NCBI GenBank assembly: GCA_049318005.1
Contig: JBMOHE010000001.1
Coordinates: 51,440 to 115,439 of the forward strand
DNA length: 64,000 nt
DNA from: Patescibacteria group bacterium
GTDB taxonomy: Bacteria; Patescibacteriota; Patescibacteriia; Patescibacteriales; UBA12465
Reading direction: 5' to 3'
Within the stretch, counting starts at the first letter, position 1. Each line of letters begins with the position of its first letter. The translations under genes were made by a program, and so were the position numbers. Of the stretch, positions 44,310 through 54,106 are shown piece after piece. The notes beneath the pieces are model-generated. The model worked only from the letters and a program-made list of their open reading frames with translations. It had not been told where the DNA came from and ran no database searches.

Positions 44310-44381
44310 GGTCCCTTCGTCTAACGGTTAGGACATCAGATTCTCATTCTGATAACAGGGGTTCGATTCCCCTAGGGACTA
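44310..44381 (+). tRNA. trnE: tRNA-Glu (anticodon CTC), integration target
   Basis: GGTCCCTTCGTCTAACGGTTAGGACATCAGATTCTCATTCTGATAACAGGGGTTCGATTCCCCTAGGGACTA. Anticodon stem TCAGA/TCTGA, loop TT-CTC-AT, G1.U72 wobble. CCA is not encoded. Confidence 0.85.
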
Positions 44382-44601
44382 CTAATTAAAAAGTGCTCAG
44401 CGTTAGCTGGGCATTTTTTAATTAGACGGCGTTAGCCGAGGGGAATCGAACGGGTGGCAACGAGCTTAGCCGAAGGTCAGCAGACCGAGGCGTAGCGAGT
44501 GCCGACAAAAGCGAGCTGGCGCAGCTTTTGGCGCCACCCCTGGACAACGAAAGAACGAGCGACGGCGAGTGATTGAGGCGGAATTCCCCTAGGGACTACT
44601 A
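44376..44601 (+). repeat. left 226-bp direct repeat (attL-like), starts in the last 6 nt of tRNA-Glu
   Basis: GGACTACTAATTAAAAAGTGCTCAGCG...GAGGCGGAATTCCCCTAGGGACTACTA. I compared it base by base with 53815-54040 and found no difference. Confidence 0.85.
44388..44419 (+). terminator. tRNA-Glu terminator hairpin (inside the direct repeat; second copy at 53827-53858)
   Basis: AGTGCTCAGC-GTTA-GCTGGGCATT followed by TTTT. Its two G.U pairs form only on the plus strand. Confidence 0.6.
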
Positions 44602-46084
44602 TCGGAGAATTAGCACTTGCTAGTTCTCTTTTGTTTTGTAAAATTAGTGAAATTTTAGGTGTTTGATTTATTGAAAAATTGAAAGTTGGTTTTTCGGTAA
44701 AAATCAAACTCTGTAATTTAAGCTTATCTTGATAATCGGCTTTTTTATATAAAGCCGGAAGATTACTTAACACTTTAAAGACCTTATCTACTTCTTTAGT
44801 AATATTAAAATTCAAGTTAGGCTGATCGTAAACGATAGCCTGTTGATTTGAAATAGTGTTTTTGATTTTTTCCATCTCGTCTTTAAAATCTTCATCATCT
44901 AATAATTCTTTTTTCTTCATTTCAATTAGCTTGGCTTTTTCGTTTTGTAGTTCTGTTAATTTTTCTTTGGCTAATTTAATTTTATCAACTGATAAACTAC
45001 TAATATCTTTTATTACACTTTGCAAAACTTTTTTATAAACCATTAAAGTCTTTTCGCTTGGTGTTATTTTCATAAGGTAATCAAAAAACTCTCCCTCTAA
45101 CTTATCTTTAGAGATTGATTTTAAGCCTTTGCAGTCCTTGTTATAGCATTTATAGAACGGATAGAGCTTTCCGCTTTTACTTTTTGACATGCAGGCAGTT
45201 ATTGGACGATTACAATGAGGGCACAGTATAAAATGACGGAGCGGAAAAGTTTCATTAGGCGTACTAGCTGAAATATTATCGCCCTTGTTTCCGGTTTTAA
45301 TAAGTCTTTGGCATTTATAGAAAGTTGATTCGTCTATTAATGGTTTATGGGTGCCTTGATATTCTTCGCCTTTGACGGTCATAACTCCTAAATAGAATTT
45401 CTCGGTTAATATTTTAAATAGAGTTTGGCTAGTTAACTCTTTGCTCTTCCATGATTTGAATCCGGCTTTAATCATTAGCTGTCTAATCTCTTCCATTCTA
45501 TAAGCACCACTAGAGAATTTATTAAAAGCCATTTGAATAATCTCAGCTCTTGGTTTATCTATCGTTATAACGGCTCCATTTTGACCGTCTCGGCTATTTA
45601 TATAACCTAGTGGTGCTTTATAACACCAGATGCCTTGTTTAATTTTCTCAAGCATGCAAGAAGATACTCTTTCGCTCCTTACATCATTATCAAATTGAGC
45701 AAATGACGCCATAATAGTGCCGATTAGTTTTCCACTTGGTGTTTTATCAACTGTTTCAGTGGCAGAGATAAACTTAATTTGTAATTCTTCAAGAGCCATC
45801 AAAATAGTAGCGTAGTCTTTAACGTTTCTTGAGAGTCTATCTATTTTATAAACAATGACTGAATCAATATTTCTATAGTTCTTCTGACAATAACTTAATA
45901 ATTCCTGCAGTCCTTTGCGGTTAGTGGTTTTAGCTGATACACCATCGTCATGAAATAGTTTTGTGATTTCAATATCATGGTTTAAGGCATATTCTAAACA
46001 AGCCTTTTTCTGTTGCTCAAGACTGACTCCATTTTGAGCTTGGTCTTCGGTTGAAACTCGGTAATATATAATTCCTTTTGACAT
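44477..46084 (-). CDS. large serine recombinase
   Basis: I prefer the ATG at 46084 (MSKGIIYYRVSTEDQ, catalytic Ser). Resolvase domain (DRLSRN), recombinase domain, Zn ribbon CPHCNRP...YKCYNKDCKG and a coiled-coil tail. The last ~42 codons are encoded inside the direct repeat. Confidence 0.9.
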   Translation of the reverse strand: MSKGIIYYRVSTEDQAQNGVSLEQQKKACLEYALNHDIEITKLFHDDGVSAKTTNRKGLQELLSYCQKNYRNIDSVIVYKIDRLSRNVKDYATILMALEELQIKFISATETVDKTPSGKLIGTIMASFAQFDNDVRSERVSSCMLEKIKQGIWCYKAPLGYINSRDGQNGAVITIDKPRAEIIQMAFNKFSSGAYRMEEIRQLMIKAGFKSWKSKELTSQTLFKILTEKFYLGVMTVKGEEYQGTHKPLIDESTFYKCQRLIKTGNKGDNISASTPNETFPLRHFILCPHCNRPITACMSKSKSGKLYPFYKCYNKDCKGLKSISKDKLEGEFFDYLMKITPSEKTLMVYKKVLQSVIKDISSLSVDKIKLAKEKLTELQNEKAKLIEMKKKELLDDEDFKDEMEKIKNTISNQQAIVYDQPNLNFNITKEVDKVFKVLSNLPALYKKADYQDKLKLQSLIFTEKPTFNFSINQTPKISLILQNKRELASANSPIVVPRGIPPQSLAVARSFVVQGWRQKLRQLAFVGTRYASVC

Positions 46085-46260
46085 AGAATTAAGGTTAATA
46101 AATAAAAAGAAAGCGGTGAAACTGTCGGACACAACTTAGCAAAAAGCCTTGTTGAAACAGCCACCGCTTTCTTTATATCAAAACGACCTTAGTCGCTTGG
46201 ATGTAAAATATAGTGACTTCTTGCTTTATAAGTTGTGTCCATTAGAGATATTAGCATATA

Positions 46261-46428
46261 TTATGATTTATTCAATATTAGATTATTTTTTCTTTTATCT
46301 TGGTAATGGTACTTACAAGCCAAACTAACCAACTGATAGATATCTCGCCGAATAGCGATAATCTCGTCTTCAGAATAATCATTAGCGTAAACGCCAAGAT
46401 TCTTTCTGATAACTTCTAAACTTAACAT
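46261..46428 (-). CDS. possible 55-aa protein between rep and the recombinase (below the ORF-track cutoff)
   Basis: My translation is MLSLEVIRKNLGVYANDYSEDEIIAIRRDIYQLVSLACKYHYQDKRKNNLILNKS. Supported by the open frame only. Its position would suit an accessory or directionality factor, which is speculative. Confidence 0.3.
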   Translation of the reverse strand: MLSLEVIRKNLGVYANDYSEDEIIAIRRDIYQLVSLACKYHYQDKRKNNLILNKS

Positions 46429-46478
46429 ATCTTTGGGGGATATGTTTACATCAAAGGAACTTTCAAAGAGGATATTTG

Positions 46479-47282
46479 TTATCCGTTTTTATAGAGCTGA
46501 TAACTAACTCTTCCGACCCATTCGGATCGGTACCACTTATCGACTAACAATTCAGATGGCAATTCTAGAGCATCTATAAACTGTCTTACTTTTAGAGCAC
46601 TAATAACAGTTTCCGGTCTTTTGAGTTTGCGAGAGTAAAAGATTTTCTTCTTGCCAGAGAGTCTTCCGTCAAACAATTCTTTAGCAATGTATTTAGATAC
46701 GTATAAACCCACTCGGGACACATGGCGAATATTGTTGATTTTAATAAAACCATAGCTCCATATTTCTTCCAGCCTACTGCTAGCTGTATATGGTAAATTA
46801 GAGAGTAAATGATAGTGAACGTTTCCGCCGCTTTCTTTCTTTATCTTTGTCTTAAAGTAATAATCTCCTTGAAACTCTGGGACGGCTAAATAAAGTAAAT
46901 CAGGATAAAACCTTTTTAGCCTTTTAATAAAGTTAGAAAATATTAAATTGCATTCTCTCATGTCGGTAAATGAGCCAGTCTTTGATTTGCTATTATCAAA
47001 GGTTAAAGTAATAAATACTTTTAGCTCCGGATTGGAATTCACTAGACGAACAATATTGGCTTTTGTCCGTCTTAGAGAAAAATCGCTTTTTACCGCTTGG
47101 TTAAAATCTTCTTGGTCTTTTTCTTCTTCGCTTTTAACGTCTTCAACACTGAGCATTGGTCTTTTTTGTTTTCTCTTTTTTCTCTTATGCCCGACTCTAA
47201 TCGCTTGCTCATAATAGTAGATTTCTATTATATCGCCTGATCTGATTAGCTTGTGCCGATAAGCTCGGATTGGTAAATCCAT
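46479..47282 (-). CDS. rep: HUH-superfamily rolling-circle replication initiator (Rep)
   Basis: Motif I FITLTF, motif II (HUH) NVHYHLL and motif III YVSKYIAKE (catalytic Tyr), in the canonical order and spacing. Confidence 0.7.
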   Translation of the reverse strand: MDLPIRAYRHKLIRSGDIIEIYYYEQAIRVGHKRKKRKQKRPMLSVEDVKSEEEKDQEDFNQAVKSDFSLRRTKANIVRLVNSNPELKVFITLTFDNSKSKTGSFTDMRECNLIFSNFIKRLKRFYPDLLYLAVPEFQGDYYFKTKIKKESGGNVHYHLLSNLPYTASSRLEEIWSYGFIKINNIRHVSRVGLYVSKYIAKELFDGRLSGKKKIFYSRKLKRPETVISALKVRQFIDALELPSELLVDKWYRSEWVGRVSYQLYKNG

Positions 47283-47296
47283 ATGCTTACGGCGTT

Positions 47297-47551
47297 AAGT
47301 GTGCCTATAGTCAAGTTAATAGGGCTACAGGGCACACTTCTTCGTCTTAAATCTCATTTACCGACCGCCCCCATTTTCTTTTTTCGGCTCCCCCAAGGGG
47401 ATGCCGCCAAAAAAAGAAAAAAACGGGGGGCGACCGGTCAAAATATGTTTTACCCCTCAAAGGAACAAAAGGGGTATTTTTGGTCTTATGAGAATAGACC
47501 ACTCGGCCAAACAAAAAACACAAGCGATATATCCGGATATATTGCTCGTGT
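47297..47551. promoter_or_regulatory. palindrome-rich region upstream of rep: candidate replication origin (dso/sso)
   Basis: Four elements: AAGTGTGCC (47297-305)/GGCACACTT (47331-339); a ~80-bp imperfect palindrome 47360-47438 centred on CCCCAAGGGG with poly-T/poly-A arms and G/C-rich outer ends; TACCCCT/AGGGGTA (47451-476); and the 34-bp palindrome ACACAAGCGATATATCC/GGATATATTGCTCGTGT (47518-551). Confidence 0.4.
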
Positions 47552-47755
47552 TTATAGTTGAGTTGGCAAAGATTCAGACTTTGCTTATTATTATATTGAA
47601 GACTGCATTTTTAAATTCATGGACGTAATCTGACTAGCCGTAGCTAGGGTCTATCTTCCTGCCTTATTATTGTTGATTAATAAGTCTATGAGAGTACTAT
47701 AGCAGAAAATTAGGGGAAAATCAATGGGCGAATTTATTGGCAATTTTTAAAGCTT

Positions 47756-47956
47756 TTAATTACGAGGGTCTTCATAGCATGTTTCGTTGCCATATTTATC
47801 TTCATAACAACCATGATTCCCTACCTTAACCCCTTTATTTCCACTTAATCCGGAGATTAAGGTCCAAATCCAAAAACATATAAGAACAACCCCTACAATA
47901 TACCAAAAAATTTTTCCCCAATCTATTTCTTTACTCATATACTTCACGTTAATCAT
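47756..47956 (-). CDS. small single-pass membrane protein
   Basis: 66 aa with TM helix IFWYIVGVVLICFWIWTLISGL and a Cys/Tyr/Glu-rich tail. Confidence 0.4.
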   Translation of the reverse strand: MINVKYMSKEIDWGKIFWYIVGVVLICFWIWTLISGLSGNKGVKVGNHGCYEDKYGNETCYEDPRN

Positions 47957-47997
47957 CTATAAATTTAATAGAATAATATTATCTTAATTTACTATGA

Positions 47998-49308
47998 TTA
48001 ATAGCATTTTACTGAAATTGTACTCACTGCACCAGTGAACAATGTTGAATAGCAACGAATTGGCTTGTATGACCGCAAATTATTATTACTCTGATTTATT
48101 TGATTAATATAATCACTTTGTATTTTATCTTGAGCTACTTTTTGCCTTTCATAAGAAGAAACTGTCTGTAAAAGTTCCCAGTATTTTACCAAAGTAGAAT
48201 CTTCAAGTTTTATATAGCTATTAAAACTGTCCACGAGACTAGCAAAAAATGCAGGATCTGAGGTAGGAGCTTCATCAAATTTAGCATAAGCCTCTACAAC
48301 AGAATTATAAGTTTTAGCATCAATAAAATCGGTAATTTGAACTTCATCGGCTATACCTTTTAATTTTATAGCAGAAGATTTTTTTTCGCTTGATAAATTT
48401 GATAAACTATTTGCCTTTTCTTTTAGCGTGCTAATAGAAGAATTATAATAATTCCCAACATTATATACTATTTTAATAACCTCTAAATCACTAGATGTTA
48501 AAAAATTTGAATTACTATCCGACAAGCCCTGTAAATAACTAGCTCTTGAATTATATAAATCTTTTACTTTATCAATGTAATCTAATAAATACTCATTTTT
48601 CTCAGAATATTTACTTTGAATATTCGCAATGTCTTTTTTATAATTATTACTTTGTGATATTTCAGAATCGCTAGGTTTACAAACAGGGTCTCCCGATGAA
48701 GGGCAATAAAATTTCTTGTCATTTTGGCAAGGTTGCCACTTTTTCCCATTACAATCTAAAAGATTAGAAGTATTTTTATCCGCTGTAGTGGTTTTTATTT
48801 CACTAACTGCAACTGAGCCACCGGCGTTATTGCTTATAGCAGAACTAGAAGTTGCACTTTGCTTATTTGATGATATCTTTTCAATATCTTTATTGGAAAT
48901 ACCTAAGCCTAAATTCCTCATTGCCGTATAAGCCTCTGAGCCATTTTTCAAATAATGAAGATTACCAGAAAAATCAACATAATAAGCCTCGCCTTTTGAT
49001 TCTACTTGTAAAAATATTTTTCCTTTGTGTTTTGAAGCTGCCGTCTTGCTGTTTTTCAATTTTTCCAAATCGCTATTTGTAATTCCAACTCCTAAATTAC
49101 GCATTATATTGTAAGCCTCATCTCCATTTGCCATGTAGTACTTTTCGGCAGTAGACGGATGAACATAATAAGCCTCACCCCTCGATTCTACTTGTAATAT
49201 TATCCTCCCTTTGAGCTTTTGTGCGATAGATGGAGTAGCTGCATTCGCCGGCAATGACGAGAACAGTGTTAACAATAACACCAACATAATTAAAATTTTT
49301 TGTTTCAT
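47998..49308 (-). CDS. secreted protein with duplicated N-terminal ~50-aa domain
   Basis: Signal peptide. KGRIILQVESRGEAYYVHP..YYMANGDEAYNIMRNLGVGITNSDLEKL is repeated as KGKIFLQVESKGEAYYVDF..HYLKNGSEAYTAMRNLGLGISNKDIEKI. The C-terminal 270 aa are unassigned. Confidence 0.55.
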   Translation of the reverse strand: MKQKILIMLVLLLTLFSSLPANAATPSIAQKLKGRIILQVESRGEAYYVHPSTAEKYYMANGDEAYNIMRNLGVGITNSDLEKLKNSKTAASKHKGKIFLQVESKGEAYYVDFSGNLHYLKNGSEAYTAMRNLGLGISNKDIEKISSNKQSATSSSAISNNAGGSVAVSEIKTTTADKNTSNLLDCNGKKWQPCQNDKKFYCPSSGDPVCKPSDSEISQSNNYKKDIANIQSKYSEKNEYLLDYIDKVKDLYNSRASYLQGLSDSNSNFLTSSDLEVIKIVYNVGNYYNSSISTLKEKANSLSNLSSEKKSSAIKLKGIADEVQITDFIDAKTYNSVVEAYAKFDEAPTSDPAFFASLVDSFNSYIKLEDSTLVKYWELLQTVSSYERQKVAQDKIQSDYINQINQSNNNLRSYKPIRCYSTLFTGAVSTISVKCY

Positions 49309-49569
49309 ATTTTTAAATATATTTTTTACACAAAAGGTCTTCCGAAACGGTTAACACACCCTTTCGGATATGCGCCTAGATAGCGAAAACCGGTCAGAAG
49401 ACCATCTCTGCTATCTAGGACTTAAGCCATGCCTTAATAAATTAAGGTTTAGGCCTATTAATTGTACTTAAAATTTATCAAAAAAAGGCCAAAAAGTCAA
49501 TTTATAACTTTTTGACTATTTATATATAGGGTAGTATTATTTAATCAATATTAATTCAAATAACCTTTT

Positions 49570-50019
49570 ATGCAAGATATATTACTAACCTCTAGTTTTA
49601 CAATAATCGGCGGTGTGATTATATTCGTTTTAGGTCAAATAATTGATAGATTTTTAATAAAACCAATTTTTGATCAAAAACAGATAATTGGAGAAATTCT
49701 TGATGCTTTAATTTTTTACGCAAATATTTATTCAAATCCATACACAACAGGTGACCAGAGCAAACACGACGATGCATCTCACAGAATTAGAGGGTTAGCA
49801 TCTAGTTTATTAGTAAAAACTAATTTAGTGCCTGGATATAAACTATTAAGCAAACTTAGAGTAACGATAAAAAGAGATAATATATCAAAGGCTCATACAG
49901 AATTAATAAGACTATCGAATTCGTTATATAGTCACCATTCTCAAGTAATAAATATTGGAATGCAAAATTCCGACACCGCAAACACGATAAAGAAATATCT
50001 CAATAACAATTTTAATTAA
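49570..50019 (+). CDS. hypothetical protein with N-terminal TM helix
   Basis: 149 aa with SSFTIIGGVIIFVLGQII as the TM helix. First of three co-oriented island genes that end with the Abi_2 neighbour. Confidence 0.45.
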   Translation: MQDILLTSSFTIIGGVIIFVLGQIIDRFLIKPIFDQKQIIGEILDALIFYANIYSNPYTTGDQSKHDDASHRIRGLASSLLVKTNLVPGYKLLSKLRVTIKRDNISKAHTELIRLSNSLYSHHSQVINIGMQNSDTANTIKKYLNNNFN

Positions 50020-50143
50020 TTTTTTGGCAATAAAAAAACCTATCGGGTTCGCATGGGCTTCGCAGCCCAGAGGCGTGATAGGTATTGATAATTAAAGTAT
50101 ACATTAATTTGCATAATGTCGCAATAAGATATTGTGGATAAAT

Positions 50144-51046
50144 ATGAAAGAGACTAATATTAAGCTAAAATATGACAAAAAACCATTAACCCTTGATGAG
50201 CAGGTAGGTCTTTTGAAAACCAGAGGGCTAATAATAGAAAGCGAGGAAGAGATAATATATTATTTAACAAATCTAAGCTATTATCATCTTTCTATTTATT
50301 TTAAATATTTTCAAAAAGACGATAAATTTTACGAAGGAATTACGTTCGGAGATATTTTGCGAATTTACATATTTGATAACAAGCTTCGATTTCTTTTATC
50401 TGAGGTGCTAGAGAGAATAGAAAAATCATTCAAGTGCAGGATGGTTTATTCATTATGTGTAGAAGAAGATGATTCTCACTGGCATTTAAATCAAAAATTT
50501 TTTGATTCTGAAGATAATTACTTAGGAATTATAAATATAATAACAGAAAACATTGATAAAAGTCGTGAATTGAGCATATTGCATTATAAGGAAACGTATT
50601 GTGACCCAGTTTTACCACCAATCTGGACAACGCTAGAAATCCTTTCTTTTGGACAATGCTGCCATATATATAATTCATTAAAAAAAGAATACAGAAATAA
50701 AATTTCCAGATCTTTTGGAGAAGATGAAAAGTTCATAAATAATTGGATGCTATGTTCATCTTTATTAAGAAACCATTGTGCTCACTATTCTAGACTGTGG
50801 AACAGAACTTTAACATATACACCAAAAATGAATCATGATTCATATAAAAAATACTTTAATAATGGAAATAAACGGATATATAATTATTTAGTTGTTTTAC
50901 AAATACTATTAAATGAAATAAACCCAACATCATCCTGGTTAGACAAATTAAAGGAACTCATAAATGAATATAAAATTAATGTTAAACAAATGGGTTTTCC
51001 GGAGGATTGGGAAAATAAATTAAAAGAAATAATTACAAATAAGTAA
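50144..51046 (+). CDS. Abi_2 family (AbiD/AbiF-like) abortive-infection protein
   Basis: PLTLDEQVGLLKTRGLII, LSYYHLSIYFKYF, ITFGDILRIYIFDNKLRFLL and LRNHCAHYSRLWNR (HEPN-type R-N-x-x-A-H). The track start at 50132 is a TTG; I prefer the ATG at 50144. Confidence 0.85.
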   Translation: MKETNIKLKYDKKPLTLDEQVGLLKTRGLIIESEEEIIYYLTNLSYYHLSIYFKYFQKDDKFYEGITFGDILRIYIFDNKLRFLLSEVLERIEKSFKCRMVYSLCVEEDDSHWHLNQKFFDSEDNYLGIINIITENIDKSRELSILHYKETYCDPVLPPIWTTLEILSFGQCCHIYNSLKKEYRNKISRSFGEDEKFINNWMLCSSLLRNHCAHYSRLWNRTLTYTPKMNHDSYKKYFNNGNKRIYNYLVVLQILLNEINPTSSWLDKLKELINEYKINVKQMGFPEDWENKLKEIITNK

Positions 51047-51140
51047 AAATCACTCTAAGCACTCTACCCATATTTAACTTCTCCCAATAATCTTACTTTT
51101 TACAAACATTTGTTTTGAGATAGTAAGACTATTAATTATT

Positions 51141-51986
51141 ATGAACAATGAAATCACAAAATTAAATTTAGAAAAGTTTGCTCATGATTCTCATTCATTT
51201 TATAAAGCGACTTATCATATCATGGAAGAAGCGGAAGAAAAGAGGGTTTTGCAATACATATTAACTGATGAAATTAATTCCCAGTATATTTATAGCGATA
51301 AATGTAGAGGTGGCTATTCAACTATGAATTTTTTAAATGAAACTTACCTAACTGGAGACCAGGAAACTTTTTTATCTTTTTTTAACGAAATATTACCGAA
51401 TATAATTAAATATACGAATTGCGCGGAATGGCAAGTTAAAGAAATACATGCTAATTTATTCCCCATAATTTACAAATTTGCTGCTATTATATATAAATCA
51501 AATAACGAGAGTGTATTTAATCTTGATTTTTATTATGATAAAGAAACACATAATTTTAAAAGAAAGTTAGACGAAGTCTCAATGGAATCTATTAATTTTA
51601 ACGATGCAAACTTAGACGGTGATAATAAAACGCGATATCAAGAATGTGTATCTGACTTCCTCTCGTATAAGAAGGATAGTGCAAAAAGCAATAAATTATT
51701 CTACAACGAATCATTAGACAGATTAAAGAGAGTTGTTGAAAATACCTTGCAAAATAAATACAAGAAACCAGACGGAAGTTCCCCAAGGATACATGACAAA
51801 AAGGAACTATCTAACATACTATTCGATAATAACAACCCTGATTTTGAAAATCTTATTGGTTATATAGTAAAGAATGTTCACCACGAAGAAGGTGGAACCC
51901 CTAAAAACTTTAGCGAAAAAGAATATCTATATTTGTGGCTTGAACTGAATAAAATATTATATCTATTAAATAGATATAAAAAGTAA
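51141..51986 (+). CDS. hypothetical protein adjacent to Abi_2
   Basis: 281 aa, no family recognised. The C-terminal IGYIVKNVHHEEGG is weakly reminiscent of the RN..HG motif of Abi_C/HEPN-like domains (Lys instead of Arg). Confidence 0.45.
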   Translation: MNNEITKLNLEKFAHDSHSFYKATYHIMEEAEEKRVLQYILTDEINSQYIYSDKCRGGYSTMNFLNETYLTGDQETFLSFFNEILPNIIKYTNCAEWQVKEIHANLFPIIYKFAAIIYKSNNESVFNLDFYYDKETHNFKRKLDEVSMESINFNDANLDGDNKTRYQECVSDFLSYKKDSAKSNKLFYNESLDRLKRVVENTLQNKYKKPDGSSPRIHDKKELSNILFDNNNPDFENLIGYIVKNVHHEEGGTPKNFSEKEYLYLWLELNKILYLLNRYKK

Positions 51987-52080
51987 GAGGAATTAATCAT
52001 AAAACTTCCGCCCACTTCTCAATTTCCCCAATAATTTCAACTATTTTTTCGGAAACTTGCGACTTTAAGACTACAAATCA

Positions 52081-52112
52081 AAAAATACCCAACTTTCATT
52101 GGGTATTTTTTA
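52081..52112. terminator. bidirectional terminator between convergent 51141..51986 and 52158..52619
   Basis: AAAAATACCCAA-CTTTCA-TTGGGTATTTTTT. Confidence 0.7.
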
Positions 52113-52157
52113 TTAAAATTTAATTTCTGTAAATATTTAAAAATATTTTCTTTAGAA

Positions 52158-52619
52158 TTATTTTATAAGGCGAGAACAATTATTTTTTCCATAGATTCTA
52201 TTCATGCATCCTTGACGAGAAAAAAGATCATTTAAACCAATCACATCAACTAAATATCCAGCAATAATTATGGCGGCCACAAAGCCAACTATAACTATTT
52301 TAAAATTTATTTTATAGGAGAAATCATATTTACGGATTAACCTTAATCCGATTACTAATCCTAGAAATGCTAATATTACCGCCCACCAAGGAAAACTCGC
52401 TAACAGTTGTTCAAAGCGATATTGCCCCATCGGACCGTGTGAACGCAAAGAAAATCTAATCAGACCAAAAAGAAAGACGGAGCTTAGAGCTGATAATATT
52501 AAACTAACAAAAACTAAAACCGAACCAATAATAAAATATAGCTTGGGACGCATTTTTAACTTTCCGTGACGAATTTCGCCCATTATACTATCGGAAATAT
52601 TTTTTAATTCTTTTGACAT
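52158..52619 (-). CDS. membrane protein, putative anti-sigma partner (island copy)
   Basis: Overlaps the sigma gene by 16 nt. The N-terminal GEIRHGKLKMRPKLYFIIG, then TM helices, parallel 1697..2500 (KIKECKICPKPRWQFLL). Confidence 0.45.
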   Translation of the reverse strand: MSKELKNISDSIMGEIRHGKLKMRPKLYFIIGSVLVFVSLILSALSSVFLFGLIRFSLRSHGPMGQYRFEQLLASFPWWAVILAFLGLVIGLRLIRKYDFSYKINFKIVIVGFVAAIIIAGYLVDVIGLNDLFSRQGCMNRIYGKNNCSRLIK

Positions 52620-53146
52620 ATACGTTTAATTAATGTTTTTGCTCTACTTATGCGGGTAGCGACCGTTCCCATCGGCAGTCTCAAAATATCGCTTATTTCT
52701 TCATAAGATTTTTCGTCAATATAATATAAGCGCAACGGTTCGGCATACAACAAAGGCATCTTGGCAAAGCATTTTTCAACTTTAGACGCAATTTCTTGTT
52801 TTTCAAAATTTAACTCAAGATCTTCCTCACTCTTAAAATCTATATTTTCTAAAATTGGCACCTCTCTTCTGTATTTTTTAGCGATATTTATGGCTTCATT
52901 ATGAACAATACGATAAATCCAGCTAGAAAATTTTTTTTTAGTATTAAAGCCCCGTAAATTTATAAAGGCCTTTATAAAAGATTCCTGAACAATATCAGCG
53001 GCATTATGCTCATCTTGAATTAAATTAGTTGCATAACGCAAAAGCTTTTCTTGATATCTTTCTATAATAACAGCATAAAACTCCTGATCTTCAGATCGGA
53101 CGCGCTCAATAATTTCTTCATCAGAAAGTAAGCTATTTTCACTCAT
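52604..53146 (-). CDS. RNA polymerase sigma-70 factor, ECF subfamily (island copy)
   Basis: FSSWIYRIVHNEAINIAKK (region 2) and SYEEISDILRLPMGTVATRISRAK (region 4). Paralog of 2504..3100. Confidence 0.85.
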   Translation of the reverse strand: MSENSLLSDEEIIERVRSEDQEFYAVIIERYQEKLLRYATNLIQDEHNAADIVQESFIKAFINLRGFNTKKKFSSWIYRIVHNEAINIAKKYRREVPILENIDFKSEEDLELNFEKQEIASKVEKCFAKMPLLYAEPLRLYYIDEKSYEEISDILRLPMGTVATRISRAKTLIKRICQKN

Positions 53147-53232
53147 AATATCAATTATAACAAAATCAAACTAACTATACACTAAGCCCCGAATTAATCA
53201 GGGCATAGTGCATAATAATAAACTTTATTGCT

Positions 53233-53640
53233 CTAACGATTCATTCCTCTGCCCGTGCTCATTCTGCCAGCACCTTTGCCACTGCCATTCTGTAATCCAC
53301 AACCAGAACCTGAGCCATTGTTCAAACCCAAACCGAGTTCTTGGCGAATTTTTTGTGCTTCTACTGTTTTGCCTTGTTCTGCTAAATTATGGGCCTCAGC
53401 GAACTTGGCAAAATTGTCTTTATTAATGACCTGCGTAACTCGGCCATTCCCTGTCATAAGATTTTTCCAAGCATTATAGTCTTTATTCTCAAATGCCTGT
53501 TCCATGGCCGCATGACGATCTGCTGAGTAGTTTGGTCCCTTAACACTTGGGTCGCCTTGATAAGCAAAAACAGCGTTAGCGGATAAACCCACGATACCAA
53601 TTATAGCTAAAGCGCCTAAACCTAATGTAATTTTTTTCAT
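53233..53640 (-). CDS. small secreted protein, paralog of 1174..1605 (island copy)
   Basis: Signal peptide, ENKDYNAWKNLMTG..KDNFAKFAEAHNLAEQGK..IRQELGLGL and a Gly/Ser-rich tail. Confidence 0.6.
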   Translation of the reverse strand: MKKITLGLGALAIIGIVGLSANAVFAYQGDPSVKGPNYSADRHAAMEQAFENKDYNAWKNLMTGNGRVTQVINKDNFAKFAEAHNLAEQGKTVEAQKIRQELGLGLNNGSGSGCGLQNGSGKGAGRMSTGRGMNR

Positions 53641-53814
53641 ATATTTTTATAATTTAATAATTTATGGTTATATTCGACCTTTCGCCTCTAATACAAAGCT
53701 GAAAGCTATTTTCTTTCAAACCTACTAATTTACATAACTATCTTTCTAAAATTTCCGCCCACTTCTCAATTTCCCCAATAATTTCATTAAAATTTTGAGA
53801 AATTTCAGAGCGTA

Positions 53815-54040
53815 GGACTACTAATTAAAAAGTGCTCAGCGTTAGCTGGGCATTTTTTAATTAGACGGCGTTAGCCGAGGGGAATCGAACGGGTGGCAAC
53901 GAGCTTAGCCGAAGGTCAGCAGACCGAGGCGTAGCGAGTGCCGACAAAAGCGAGCTGGCGCAGCTTTTGGCGCCACCCCTGGACAACGAAAGAACGAGCG
54001 ACGGCGAGTGATTGAGGCGGAATTCCCCTAGGGACTACTA
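53815..54040 (+). repeat. right 226-bp direct repeat (attR-like)
   Basis: Identical to 44376-44601 by manual comparison (offset 9439 bp). Confidence 0.85.
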
Positions 54041-54077
54041 GTTAAGAAAAGACGTGTTTCAGGACACGTCTTTTCTA

Positions 54078-54106
54078 TTGACATAAACATGAATGCATGA
54101 TATATT
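54078..54106 (+). promoter_or_regulatory. sigma-70-type promoter upstream of 54243..54803
   Basis: TTGACA (54078-83), 17-nt spacer, TATATT (54101-06), leaving a leader of about 135 nt that contains a long hairpin. Confidence 0.45.

Follow-up and report, generated by a model that had tools for sequence, protein, structure and literature searches.

What placed two perfect copies of a 226-bp sequence at the ends of a mobile element beside a tRNA gene? The question is raised by a 9.4-kb interval next to tRNA-Glu(CTC) on Patescibacteria contig JBMOHE010000001.1, from which a stretch of 64,000 nucleotides was analysed; this whole stretch is called the window here, and positions without a locus name refer to it. 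A repeat search of the 64-kb window showed that 44376-44601 and 53815-54040 are 226 nt long, 100% identical and spaced by 9439 nt, and a chance origin of such a repeat within 64 kb is impossible. A preliminary description had reported these direct repeats, with the left copy beginning in the last 6 nt of the tRNA gene, and between them a mobile element with a large serine recombinase (LSR), an HUH rolling-circle replication protein (Rep), Abi_2 and an ECF sigma factor. The repeats and their position were confirmed by repeat search, ARAGORN and Rfam, the gene content by Pfam and the Rep translation, and the type of element by the likeness of its Rep to those of small Firmicute plasmids. Two explanations of the repeats had been offered, an unusually long shared attachment (att) region and Campbell-style integration through the 226-bp homology. 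Since relatives of the recombinase use a short core, and since most of the repeat is a module that recurs in other genomes, we read the repeats as two copies of this module (M) and not as att sites. In the reading that we prefer, with a probability of roughly 65%, an integrative plasmid with an LSR and a Rep (E1), together with a cassette (X), lies between two copies of M beside tRNA-Glu.

Anatomy of the locus

The repeat is made of a 9-bp core, GGACTACTA, which the window junctions have in common, and the 217-bp module M. At its right end the tRNA 3′ end appears once more as a 19-nt copy, ATTCCCCTAGGGACTACTA (44583-44601 and 54022-54040), which is identical to 44366-44384 and starts at the last three T-loop bases of the tRNA. 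In order, the locus reads tRNA/core, M, core, interior, core, M, core and trailer, with the following features.

44310-44381/2, + strand: tRNA-Glu(CTC), from ARAGORN (Rfam tRNA, 63.8 bits); the left repeat copy begins 6 nt short of its 3′ end
44376-44384: recombination core GGACTACTA, the last 6 nt of tRNA-Glu plus CTA
tRNA-Glu end/core and the terminator after it, + strand: putative unoccupied attB-type site S1, from sequence
44385-44601, + strand: module M copy 1, 217 bp, GC 0.585, 136-bit match to covariance model R1
44388-44419, + strand: terminator hairpin of M copy 1
about 44436-44582, + strand: GC-rich structured block of M copy 1 (~150 nt), 58% GC against ~30% around it
44583-44601, + strand: pseudo tRNA 3′ end of M copy 1, including the core, 19 nt
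44583-44640: attL-type junction, made of the pseudo-tRNA half-site (B-type), core GGACTACTA and P′
44604-44629: terminator-like hairpin of P′, the 3′ coding end of the LSR gene, followed by TTTGTTTTGT
44477-46132, − strand: LSR with Resolvase, Recombinase and Zn_ribbon_recom domains (Pfam); an ATG at 46084 gives 535 aa (44477-46084), and 46132 is an alternative GTG start
52000-52067: P arm 1, encoding ..VVLKSQVSEKIVEIIGEIEKWAEVL and a stop on the − strand
53747-53814: P arm 2, in frame with the LSR across the core, encoding ..VVLRSEISQNFNEIIGEIEKWAEILER and a stop
53824-54040, + strand: module M copy 2, identical to copy 1
54022-54076, + strand: putative second unoccupied attB-type site S4, made of the pseudo-tRNA end, core, GTTAAG and a perfect terminator hairpin

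The GTTAAG and perfect terminator after the right repeat are probably the original tRNA-Glu trailer. A third copy of the right junction, 77% similar, lies at 52000-52112 (repeat family D2). No match to the tyrosine-integrase family (Phage_integrase) was found with Pfam in the 20 ORFs scanned between 41789 and 56886.

A recombinase family at tRNA 3′ ends

The enzyme is a bona fide LSR. It has a resolvase catalytic domain (PF00239, E=2e-37) with the motif YYRVSTEDQ, whose nucleophilic S11 is invariant in 46 sequences, followed by recombinase and zinc ribbon domains (PF07508, E=1e-12; PF13408, E=4.5e-6) with four invariant Cys (C288, C291, C313 and C318). A heptad-like stretch seen by eye, KIKLAKEKLTELQNEKAKLIEMKKKELL, is a candidate coiled coil. 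Phage large serine integrases are 28-30% identical over the first 75% of the protein, and the family-specific C-terminal ~120 aa gave no phage match. The protein is identical to NCBI MFZ4631671.1, ‘MAG: recombinase family protein [Patescibacteria group bacterium]’ (MAG, metagenome-assembled genome), on a 198-kb contig. Exact-protein look-ups with the window LSR, P0121 and the 135-aa ORF of cassette X returned no entries.

A protein search with the LSR identified a large Patescibacteria family, most members of which are 507 aa long and end in ..SSPIVVPRGIEPLLPG, the antisense translation of the T-arm and acceptor of a tRNA. In a survey of 79 genome loci, 77 were analysed for overlap between the LSR gene and a tRNA gene, and in 68 of the 77 the LSR ORF lies antisense over the tRNA 3′ end (54 Glu, 11 Ala, and one each of Arg, Lys and Asn), with tails reading ..VVPRGIEPLLPG. 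A scan of IMG/VR with the LSR alignment gave a single family member (43% identity), the remainder being ordinary resolvase-like matches; the family is therefore uncatalogued as viral. Literature searches on serine recombinases and tRNA in the candidate phyla radiation (CPR), on integrase genes that contain attP and on rolling-circle plasmids of CPR gave nothing relevant, and no description of this LSR family or of M. The Falkowbacteria MAG ELA532 has three family LSRs on three contigs (L016, L028 and L030), which are 77-81% identical to that of the window; the L028 LSR carries a non-tRNA tail.

The closest relative, L001, has an LSR that is 97% identical, and its DNA is 91% identical over window positions 44583-47751. 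It lies immediately next to tRNA-Glu(TTC), and no M is present. The attL sequence is CCCCTAGGGACTACTA and then TCGGGG; its attR reads TTTAAGACTACA and then CTTT or, more fully, ..GACTTTAAGACTACA and then CTTTAG and a terminator. The two ends have only GACTAC (6 bp) in common. A core this short is ordinary for an LSR, and a 226-bp att region is thereby ruled out. The earlier suggestion of a long shared att falls on this core and on the 68 of 77 LSRs that abut the tRNA directly.

The recombinase gene spans attP

The LSR ORF of the window extends 125 nt (41 codons and a stop) into the left repeat. It crosses the core as ATA GTA GTC (IVV). Conservation within the family reaches as far as ..SPIVV (codons over 44594-44602), and in the 38 codons that remain (44480-44593) the frame reads through the antisense strand of M. 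When the frame is instead joined to the sequence left of the right-hand core, from 53814 downward, it continues in frame as LRSEISQNFNEIIGEIEKWAEILER and a stop. This 68-nt segment left of the right-hand core, the P arm, encodes the tail of the family. The preliminary description had proposed that the recombinase C-terminus is att-encoded: the ORF does run into the repeat, but what it reads there is antisense M, and the native C-terminus comes from the P arm, on the opposite side of the element. The same replacement by antisense M is seen in L007/L006 (P0032).

An nhmmer search over the fetched loci found 37 P arms, with two to three in each of eight distinct loci besides the window. In 25 of them (19 loci and the window) the encoded tail is xVV[LV][KR]SxISQNF[ND]EI[IV]GEIEKWAEIL, with a stop immediately or within a few codons. 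Full-length LSRs end in ..EIIGEIEKWAEILER, and the tRNA-tailed form in ..PRGIEPLL... Four natural full-length LSRs (P0025, P0040, P0049 and P0077) have a P-arm-type tail. The P0049 gene lies on a Logan contig with a terminal overlap of 30 nt (k-1), and an ORF runs across the joint, so the contig is a free circle of ~10.8 kb. A search for terminal overlaps in L308 and in 18 shorter LSR-bearing loci, of which 12 are complete genome contigs, found none. In L008, two complete Rep and LSR elements are in tandem at tRNA-Arg; the LSR next to the tRNA reads into the tRNA, and the internal one takes its last codons from the P arm of the neighbouring element. The native C-terminus ..EIIGEIEKWAEIL is thus present in a circular relative and in a tandem array, where the P arm at the far end encodes it.

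Taken together, these sequences indicate that the LSR gene itself spans attP. Since the P arm is at the far end of the element after integration, the native C-terminus is regained in a circle or at a tandem junction, and ~25 residues are swapped when the element integrates. Most junctions of P arm and core are followed by an A-rich stretch, a strong hairpin and a T run. We infer that the right half-sites are interchangeable terminator-like sequences and that P-type or B-type identity resides in the left half-site, which would allow repeated insertion of new units by the tRNA, and hence arrays.

Two relatives carry further cargo. The circular Logan contig L388 (10,823 bp), a distant relative of the window element, encodes a full-length family LSR, a ResIII helicase, an N6_N4 DNA methylase and a DUF5655 protein, and another, apparently Rep-like ORF crosses its joint. 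In L008/L009 (1-16800, at tRNA-Arg(TCT)), the distal element carries a diversity-generating retroelement (RVT_1, bAvd) with two Fib_succ_major/N_methyl target genes.

Module M recurs at tRNA ends and has a conserved fold

With nhmmer and the covariance model built here (R1), M was found 18 times in 1.43 Mb; in the window there are no copies beyond the two repeats. In L007/L006 it stands at tRNA-Ala, between the tRNA and the LSR gene. It directly follows the P arm and core in the window, L022, L026, L029 (two copies) and L090, whose LSR targets tRNA-Ser(CGA). M occurs alone after a tRNA in L200, L170 (tRNA-Ser GCT) and L017 (tRNA-Ser CGA), and as a tandem pair in L029, after tRNA-Cys, and in L043, on a stretch without a tRNA; a single further copy is in L155. 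All 18 copies are co-oriented with the local tRNA and carry its 3′ end (Glu, Ala, Cys, Ser-GCT or Ser-CGA). The GC-rich block of each opens with bases complementary to the pseudo-tRNA end, so that the two ends of M match: GGGGAAT...ATTCCCC for Glu, GGGAT...ATCCC for Ala and Ser, and GGAGT...ACTCC for Cys. The GC content of M is 51-64% in genomes of ~30% GC.

The predicted fold has a closing helix (P1), formed by the pseudo-tRNA end and the start of the block with the core as a 3′ tail, then a helix P2 and two to three variable hairpins; CTGGACAAC and GAGGCGGAA are conserved single-stranded segments. In alignment A3 of M, 93.5% of the cells are paired, compared with 72.3% in shuffles, none of 500 of which reached the observed value; as a further control, sliding the partners left at most 45% paired. 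Changes on both sides that keep the pairing were found in 16 of 22 pairs (71 cells), P1 included. No Rfam match (E<=1) over M was found in the window, L029, L007, L206, L200 or L170. A scan of metagenomes with the pattern CTGGACAAC N{15,45} GAGGCGGAA, which is very loose, gave true M in 5 of 120 stretches, and the same loose pattern gave no true M among viral stretches of IMG/VR. From its sequence and predicted fold, M appears to be a recurrent, apparently undescribed structured module that mimics a tRNA end.

Several known types of element were considered for M and rejected. A second tRNA or an intron-bearing tRNA would have a 5′ acceptor strand, and M has none; a tmRNA or a Y-RNA-like RNA is excluded by the lack of an Rfam match, and a TnpB/IscB guide RNA or an IS110 bridge RNA by the lack of any such protein nearby. 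The reading of M as the single-strand origin of the plasmid was dropped, as L001 is without M and M occurs without a Rep; a weak further point is that the more stable strand is probably the wrong one relative to the Rep, which relies on the usual convention of rolling-circle plasmids. Coding extension of the LSR is rejected, as an open frame is expected in GC-rich DNA and M is mostly unfused to the LSR. An integron attC site does not fit a module with no IntI or tyrosine recombinase and no ORF of its own that is confined to tRNA-type ends. As for a miniature inverted-repeat transposable element (MITE) or other non-autonomous transposon, the sole inverted pair is the 8-10 bp P1 helix with the tRNA copy, and all 18 copies are at tRNA or pseudo-tRNA ends.

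A perfect palindrome, CTGCCTGCCGGCAGGCAG, was seen in L026 (73-90), L029 (3641-3658 and 13784-13801) and L155 (208-225). Among 388 fetched loci it is confined to sites inside or beside M, at varying positions within M, and is either a tiny insertion or a recurrently acquired hairpin.

The interior as a probable integrative plasmid followed by a cassette without a recombinase

The 9.4-kb interior is composite, consisting of E1 and the LSR-less unit X, and has two attR-type junctions. Its features other than the LSR gene and the P arms are as follows.

44602 to about 52075 (~7.5 kb): element E1, with the LSR, a 55-aa ORF, Rep, candidate origin and cargo
46261-46428, − strand: 55-aa ORF between Rep and LSR, a position kept in L001-L005 and L008
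46479-47282, − strand: HUH rolling-circle Rep (REP_ORF2-G2P, PF23343; PHROGs)
47283-47755: non-coding, palindrome-rich block beside Rep (palindrome 47510-47559), 91% conserved with L001
47756-51986: cargo region of E1, with 66-aa and 436-aa ORFs (− strand) and a 149-aa ORF, Abi_2 and a 281-aa ORF (+ strand)
49333-49455, − strand: LOOT RNA (Rfam RF03000), 51.1 bits against a gathering threshold of 46.4, between the 436-aa and 149-aa ORFs
50132-51046, + strand: Abi_2 (Pfam)
52000-52112, + strand: attR-type junction 1, the right end of E1, with P arm 1, degenerate core TAAGACTACA and a terminator hairpin at 52078-52112
52076-53823: unit X, LSR-less cassette (1.7 kb), terminator first, P arm 2 and core (53815-53823) last
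52158-52619, 52604-53146 and 53233-53640, all − strand: ORFs of X, of 153 aa, an ECF sigma factor and 135 aa

The Rep translation contains the motifs VFITLTF, VHYHLL (HUH) and YVSKYIAKE (catalytic Tyr), and it is 33-37% identical over 85-99% of the length to Reps of 1.5-8.5 kb Firmicute plasmids (Geobacillus, Bacillus and Brevibacillus). Of the 62 loci with sufficient sequence, 31 have a Rep homologue directly upstream of the LSR. Among the genes of the element, none for a phage structural protein was detected. With a plasmid-type Rep, an LSR and no such proteins, the element is best read as an integrative rolling-circle plasmid. The palindrome-rich block (47283-47755) is a candidate double-strand origin. 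The 55-aa and 66-aa ORFs gave no family match; at a guess, the 55-aa ORF is a directionality factor or a Rep accessory.

The relic at 52001-52075 is 96% identical to the P arm of the L001 attR. Units like X occur elsewhere: L206 reads tRNA-Ala, M, 1.2 kb and P arm, without an LSR, and in the loci L015, L022, L024, L025 and L029, with several P arms each, the pattern is the same. Decay of the stacked units can be seen in L015, which packs three P arms into 3.2 kb: at 1736-1807 and beyond, one P arm gives way to a degenerate 3′ fragment of M (..GAGCGAGCGCGAGAAATCCCCTAGAAACTAC) and then to what is left of an LSR 3′ end.

Further observations concern the cargo and the flanks. The 436-aa ORF (47998-49308), which gave no family match, has an internal 61-nt direct repeat (48973-49033 and 49159-49219, 80% identity), which suggests an internally repeated protein. 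A second LOOT RNA, of 56.6 bits, is found in L024 (13954-14059, + strand), outside an LSR element, in another Patescibacteria MAG. The chromosomal flank upstream of the window element has peptide deformylase and formyltransferase genes, and right of S4 the chromosome resumes with a 186-aa ORF and PilM/PilN. A promoter close to the consensus (TTGACA and TATATT 17 nt apart, and a TG upstream; 54078-54106, + strand) lies directly after the native tRNA terminator, ahead of this ORF and PilM/PilN.

Origin of the layout

The anatomy of the window, the short core in relatives, the ORF that spans attP, the circular relative, and the recurrence and covariation of M were all observed, and they are what the preferred reading builds on. 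In this reading E1 and X would both belong to a system that is widespread in Patescibacteria, in which the LSR would recombine the P arm with the tRNA 3′ end across a short core (GACTAC in L001; GGACTACTA in the window). In the free circle the LSR ORF would run through the core into the P arm, to end in ..EIIGEIEKWAEIL; after integration the P arm would be at the far end, and the ORF would read whatever adjoins the core on the left. Each M would supply an extra attB-type site, formed by its pseudo-tRNA end and the terminator that follows, and the plasmid would have been inserted at the attB-type site where one M, with its pseudo-tRNA end, meets the terminator of the M that follows. At a locus with tRNA and M, integration at the true tRNA end would give the order tRNA, element, M (as in L022, L026, L029 and L090), and integration at the pseudo end the order tRNA, M, element (as in L007).

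We infer the route to two identical M copies, as well as the attB function of the pseudo-tRNA ends. E1 and X may have entered the middle site of a tandem of two M copies (route a). Alternatively, a 9439-bp circle of M, E1 and X may have been excised from a tRNA-M-element layout via the outer tRNA site and then inserted at the tRNA of an M-bearing chromosome (route b); the insertion would be the work either of the LSR, with a crossover between P arm 2/M terminator and tRNA/M terminator, or of RecA acting on the 226-bp homology. Route b would explain the perfect identity of the M copies and, with later excision of the element, tandem M arrays too.

Four other explanations were weighed. The Campbell-type integration of the preliminary description, in which RecA crosses a 9439-bp M-carrying rolling-circle plasmid with a chromosomal M at tRNA-Glu and the LSR takes no part in the event, is possible, with the odds clearly against it as the full account. 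A 226-bp identity fits a recent single crossover within homology, solitary M copies after tRNAs in L017, L170 and L200 make the chromosomal target plausible, and the resulting end structure is the same as by the LSR route. It leaves unexplained, however, why a tRNA half-site and core stand at the end of M, exactly at the LSR junctions, and why the joints of pseudo-tRNA end with P′ and of P arm with terminator are precise and LSR-type, with the same form in relatives; the plasmid must already hold attL-type and attR-type joints, and hence earlier LSR events. We consider it rather unlikely that the layout is an assembly loop or a mixed population, in which the chromosome has tRNA, one M and trailer, with the 9.4 kb either free as a circle or located at attB-type sites that differ from cell to cell. 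A single collapsed node that is passed through twice would look like a perfect 226-bp repeat; in addition, the element encodes a Rep, and there are relatives in circular form. The independent Logan assemblies of SRR30676215/216/220 are 100% identical to the window, and on both outgoing branches the k=31 contigs reach exactly 30 nt into M from its right end (LSR side, L304 and L305; trailer side, L302 and L303); in SRR30676216 the end of M continues into both the LSR gene and the chromosomal trailer, so that both joints are in one sample. The Logan contig with the ECF sigma gene ends before the right junction, and the fmt contigs break inside the tRNA. On the other hand, the deposited 198-kb MAG contig passes through both M copies, comparable integrated layouts with M on one side only were assembled elsewhere (L007; L022, L026, L029 and L090), and a few look-ups gave no direct joint of tRNA with P′ or of P arm 2 with trailer for this population.

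That M is functionless debris of earlier integrations, carrying displaced tRNA 3′ ends, seems improbable. Tandem integration at tRNA genes leaves such displaced copies and degenerate fragments exist (the one in L015 at 1736-1807), but the architecture of M is conserved across tRNA-Glu, Ala, Cys and Ser sites, and neither the compensatory changes, which include the helix of pseudo-tRNA end and block start, nor the high GC content would be expected of debris. For a 226-bp shared att region there is hardly any room left: all that speaks for it is that, by coincidence, the repeats stand at the ends of the element and adjoin the tRNA, and against it are the 6-bp core of a 97%-identical relative without M, the 68 of 77 relatives that abut the tRNA directly, and the occurrence of M without any LSR element.

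A number of observations weigh against the preferred reading of E1 and X between two M copies. A free 9439-bp circle together with an empty site (tRNA, M, trailer) gives the same assembly graph, so that physical integration between the M copies is no more than probable; the excised form of the window element was not found, and the reconstructed full-length LSR is absent from the protein collection. Use of pseudo-tRNA ends by the LSR, as read from sequence, would rest on two arrangements, the left junction of the window and L007/L006. The strand of M is left undecided by its G:U pairs (5) versus A:C pairs (3), and the + strand folds more stably in just 11 of 14 instances. L015 (3181-3255) and L025 (6338-6412) carry the opening terminators of M (of the window and of L022) after P arms without the GC-rich block, which makes the left boundary of M uncertain, as the terminator may belong in or out. 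Finally, the tandem M copies elsewhere (M3/M4 of L029, and L043) are divergent and not identical; this favours a recent integration of an M-carrying circle over insertion into an old tandem.

Relation to known systems

Several features of the window element are unusual: the targeting of tRNA 3′ ends, the attP in the LSR ORF with exchange of the C-terminus, the LSR-less cassettes with a detachable coding piece for the C-terminus, and M. Large serine integrases of phages and of integrative and conjugative elements (ICEs), such as phiC31, Bxb1, A118, TP901-1 and SPbeta SprA, have the same Resolvase, Recombinase and zinc ribbon domains, a short core between att sites and hybrid attL and attR flanking the element. 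These enzymes target protein-coding genes, whereas the window LSR family targets tRNA 3′ ends. They also differ from the window LSR in that it has attP in its own ORF, with the last ~25 residues exchanged upon integration, and in that the right half-sites of its family are all terminator-like hairpins, with arrays that hold several P-type sites. For the ORF-spanning attP, the nearest known precedents are the integration-dependent immunity of mycobacteriophages, with attP inside the repressor gene, and the fusellovirus SSV1, whose integrase gene is split by integration; both use a tyrosine integrase. There too attP lies near a coding 3′ end or in int, integration alters the C-terminus and circularisation restores it. 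Here, in contrast, integration cuts a serine recombinase gene, and the 3′ ‘exon’ of the P arm is also found on LSR-less cassettes and could complete the LSR when co-excised.

Like tRNA islands and actinomycete ICEs (AICEs) of the pSAM2/SLP1 type, the window element is an integrative plasmid at a tRNA 3′ end, where a copy of the tRNA end restores the gene, with displaced 3′-end copies and tandem accretion. Unlike these tyrosine-integrase systems, it has no tyrosine integrase, the true att identity is 6-9 bp, and the 19-nt tRNA copy is part of M and not of the plasmid. The Rep has the HUH and Tyr motifs of small Firmicute rolling-circle plasmids, but here, in a Patescibacteria host, it is paired with an LSR for integration into the chromosome. 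M resembles integron attC sites and cassette arrays, MITEs, repetitive extragenic palindromic (REP) elements, single-strand origins and IS110 bridge RNAs as a short structured non-coding unit that bears a putative recombination site and is stacked in arrays beside a fixed platform, with an end-joining helix and a segment matching the target. It is unlike them in having no IntI, transposase or IS110 recombinase nearby, no terminal inverted repeats with target duplication and no attC box structure.

A wider view, which we put forward only tentatively and hold to be less probable than not, is that tRNA 3′ ends in Patescibacteria are integron-like platforms of one LSR family, on which three kinds of unit stack, each terminator-first: autonomous Rep and LSR plasmids, LSR-less cassettes, and M. 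The P arm of a cassette would have two roles, as a half-site for recombination and as a C-terminal exon that can be detached and, upon co-excision, completes the LSR. M would be a new class of structured RNA or single-stranded DNA element, with a closing helix that holds the tRNA-matched attB half-site, and it would spread by, and possibly steer or regulate, LSR recombination.

Significance

To our knowledge, almost no genetic tools exist for CPR/Patescibacteria. A compact self-replicating plasmid with a defined integrase, a short core and a universal target, the tRNA-Glu 3′ end, is a realistic vector backbone, and the LSR family supplies dozens of natural attP/attB pairs at tRNA-Glu, Ala, Arg, Lys, Asn and Ser. 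The locus is also a warning that perfect repeats bounding an island are not necessarily att sites. Control of directionality is a central question for serine integrases, and an LSR C-terminus that is swapped by integration is a possible built-in switch between the free and the integrated state. M is a candidate new structured element with good covariation, whose target-matching end lies inside its fold and would make extra landing sites. If M is functional, it would be a 217-bp parasite or helper that exploits a protein-guided recombinase.

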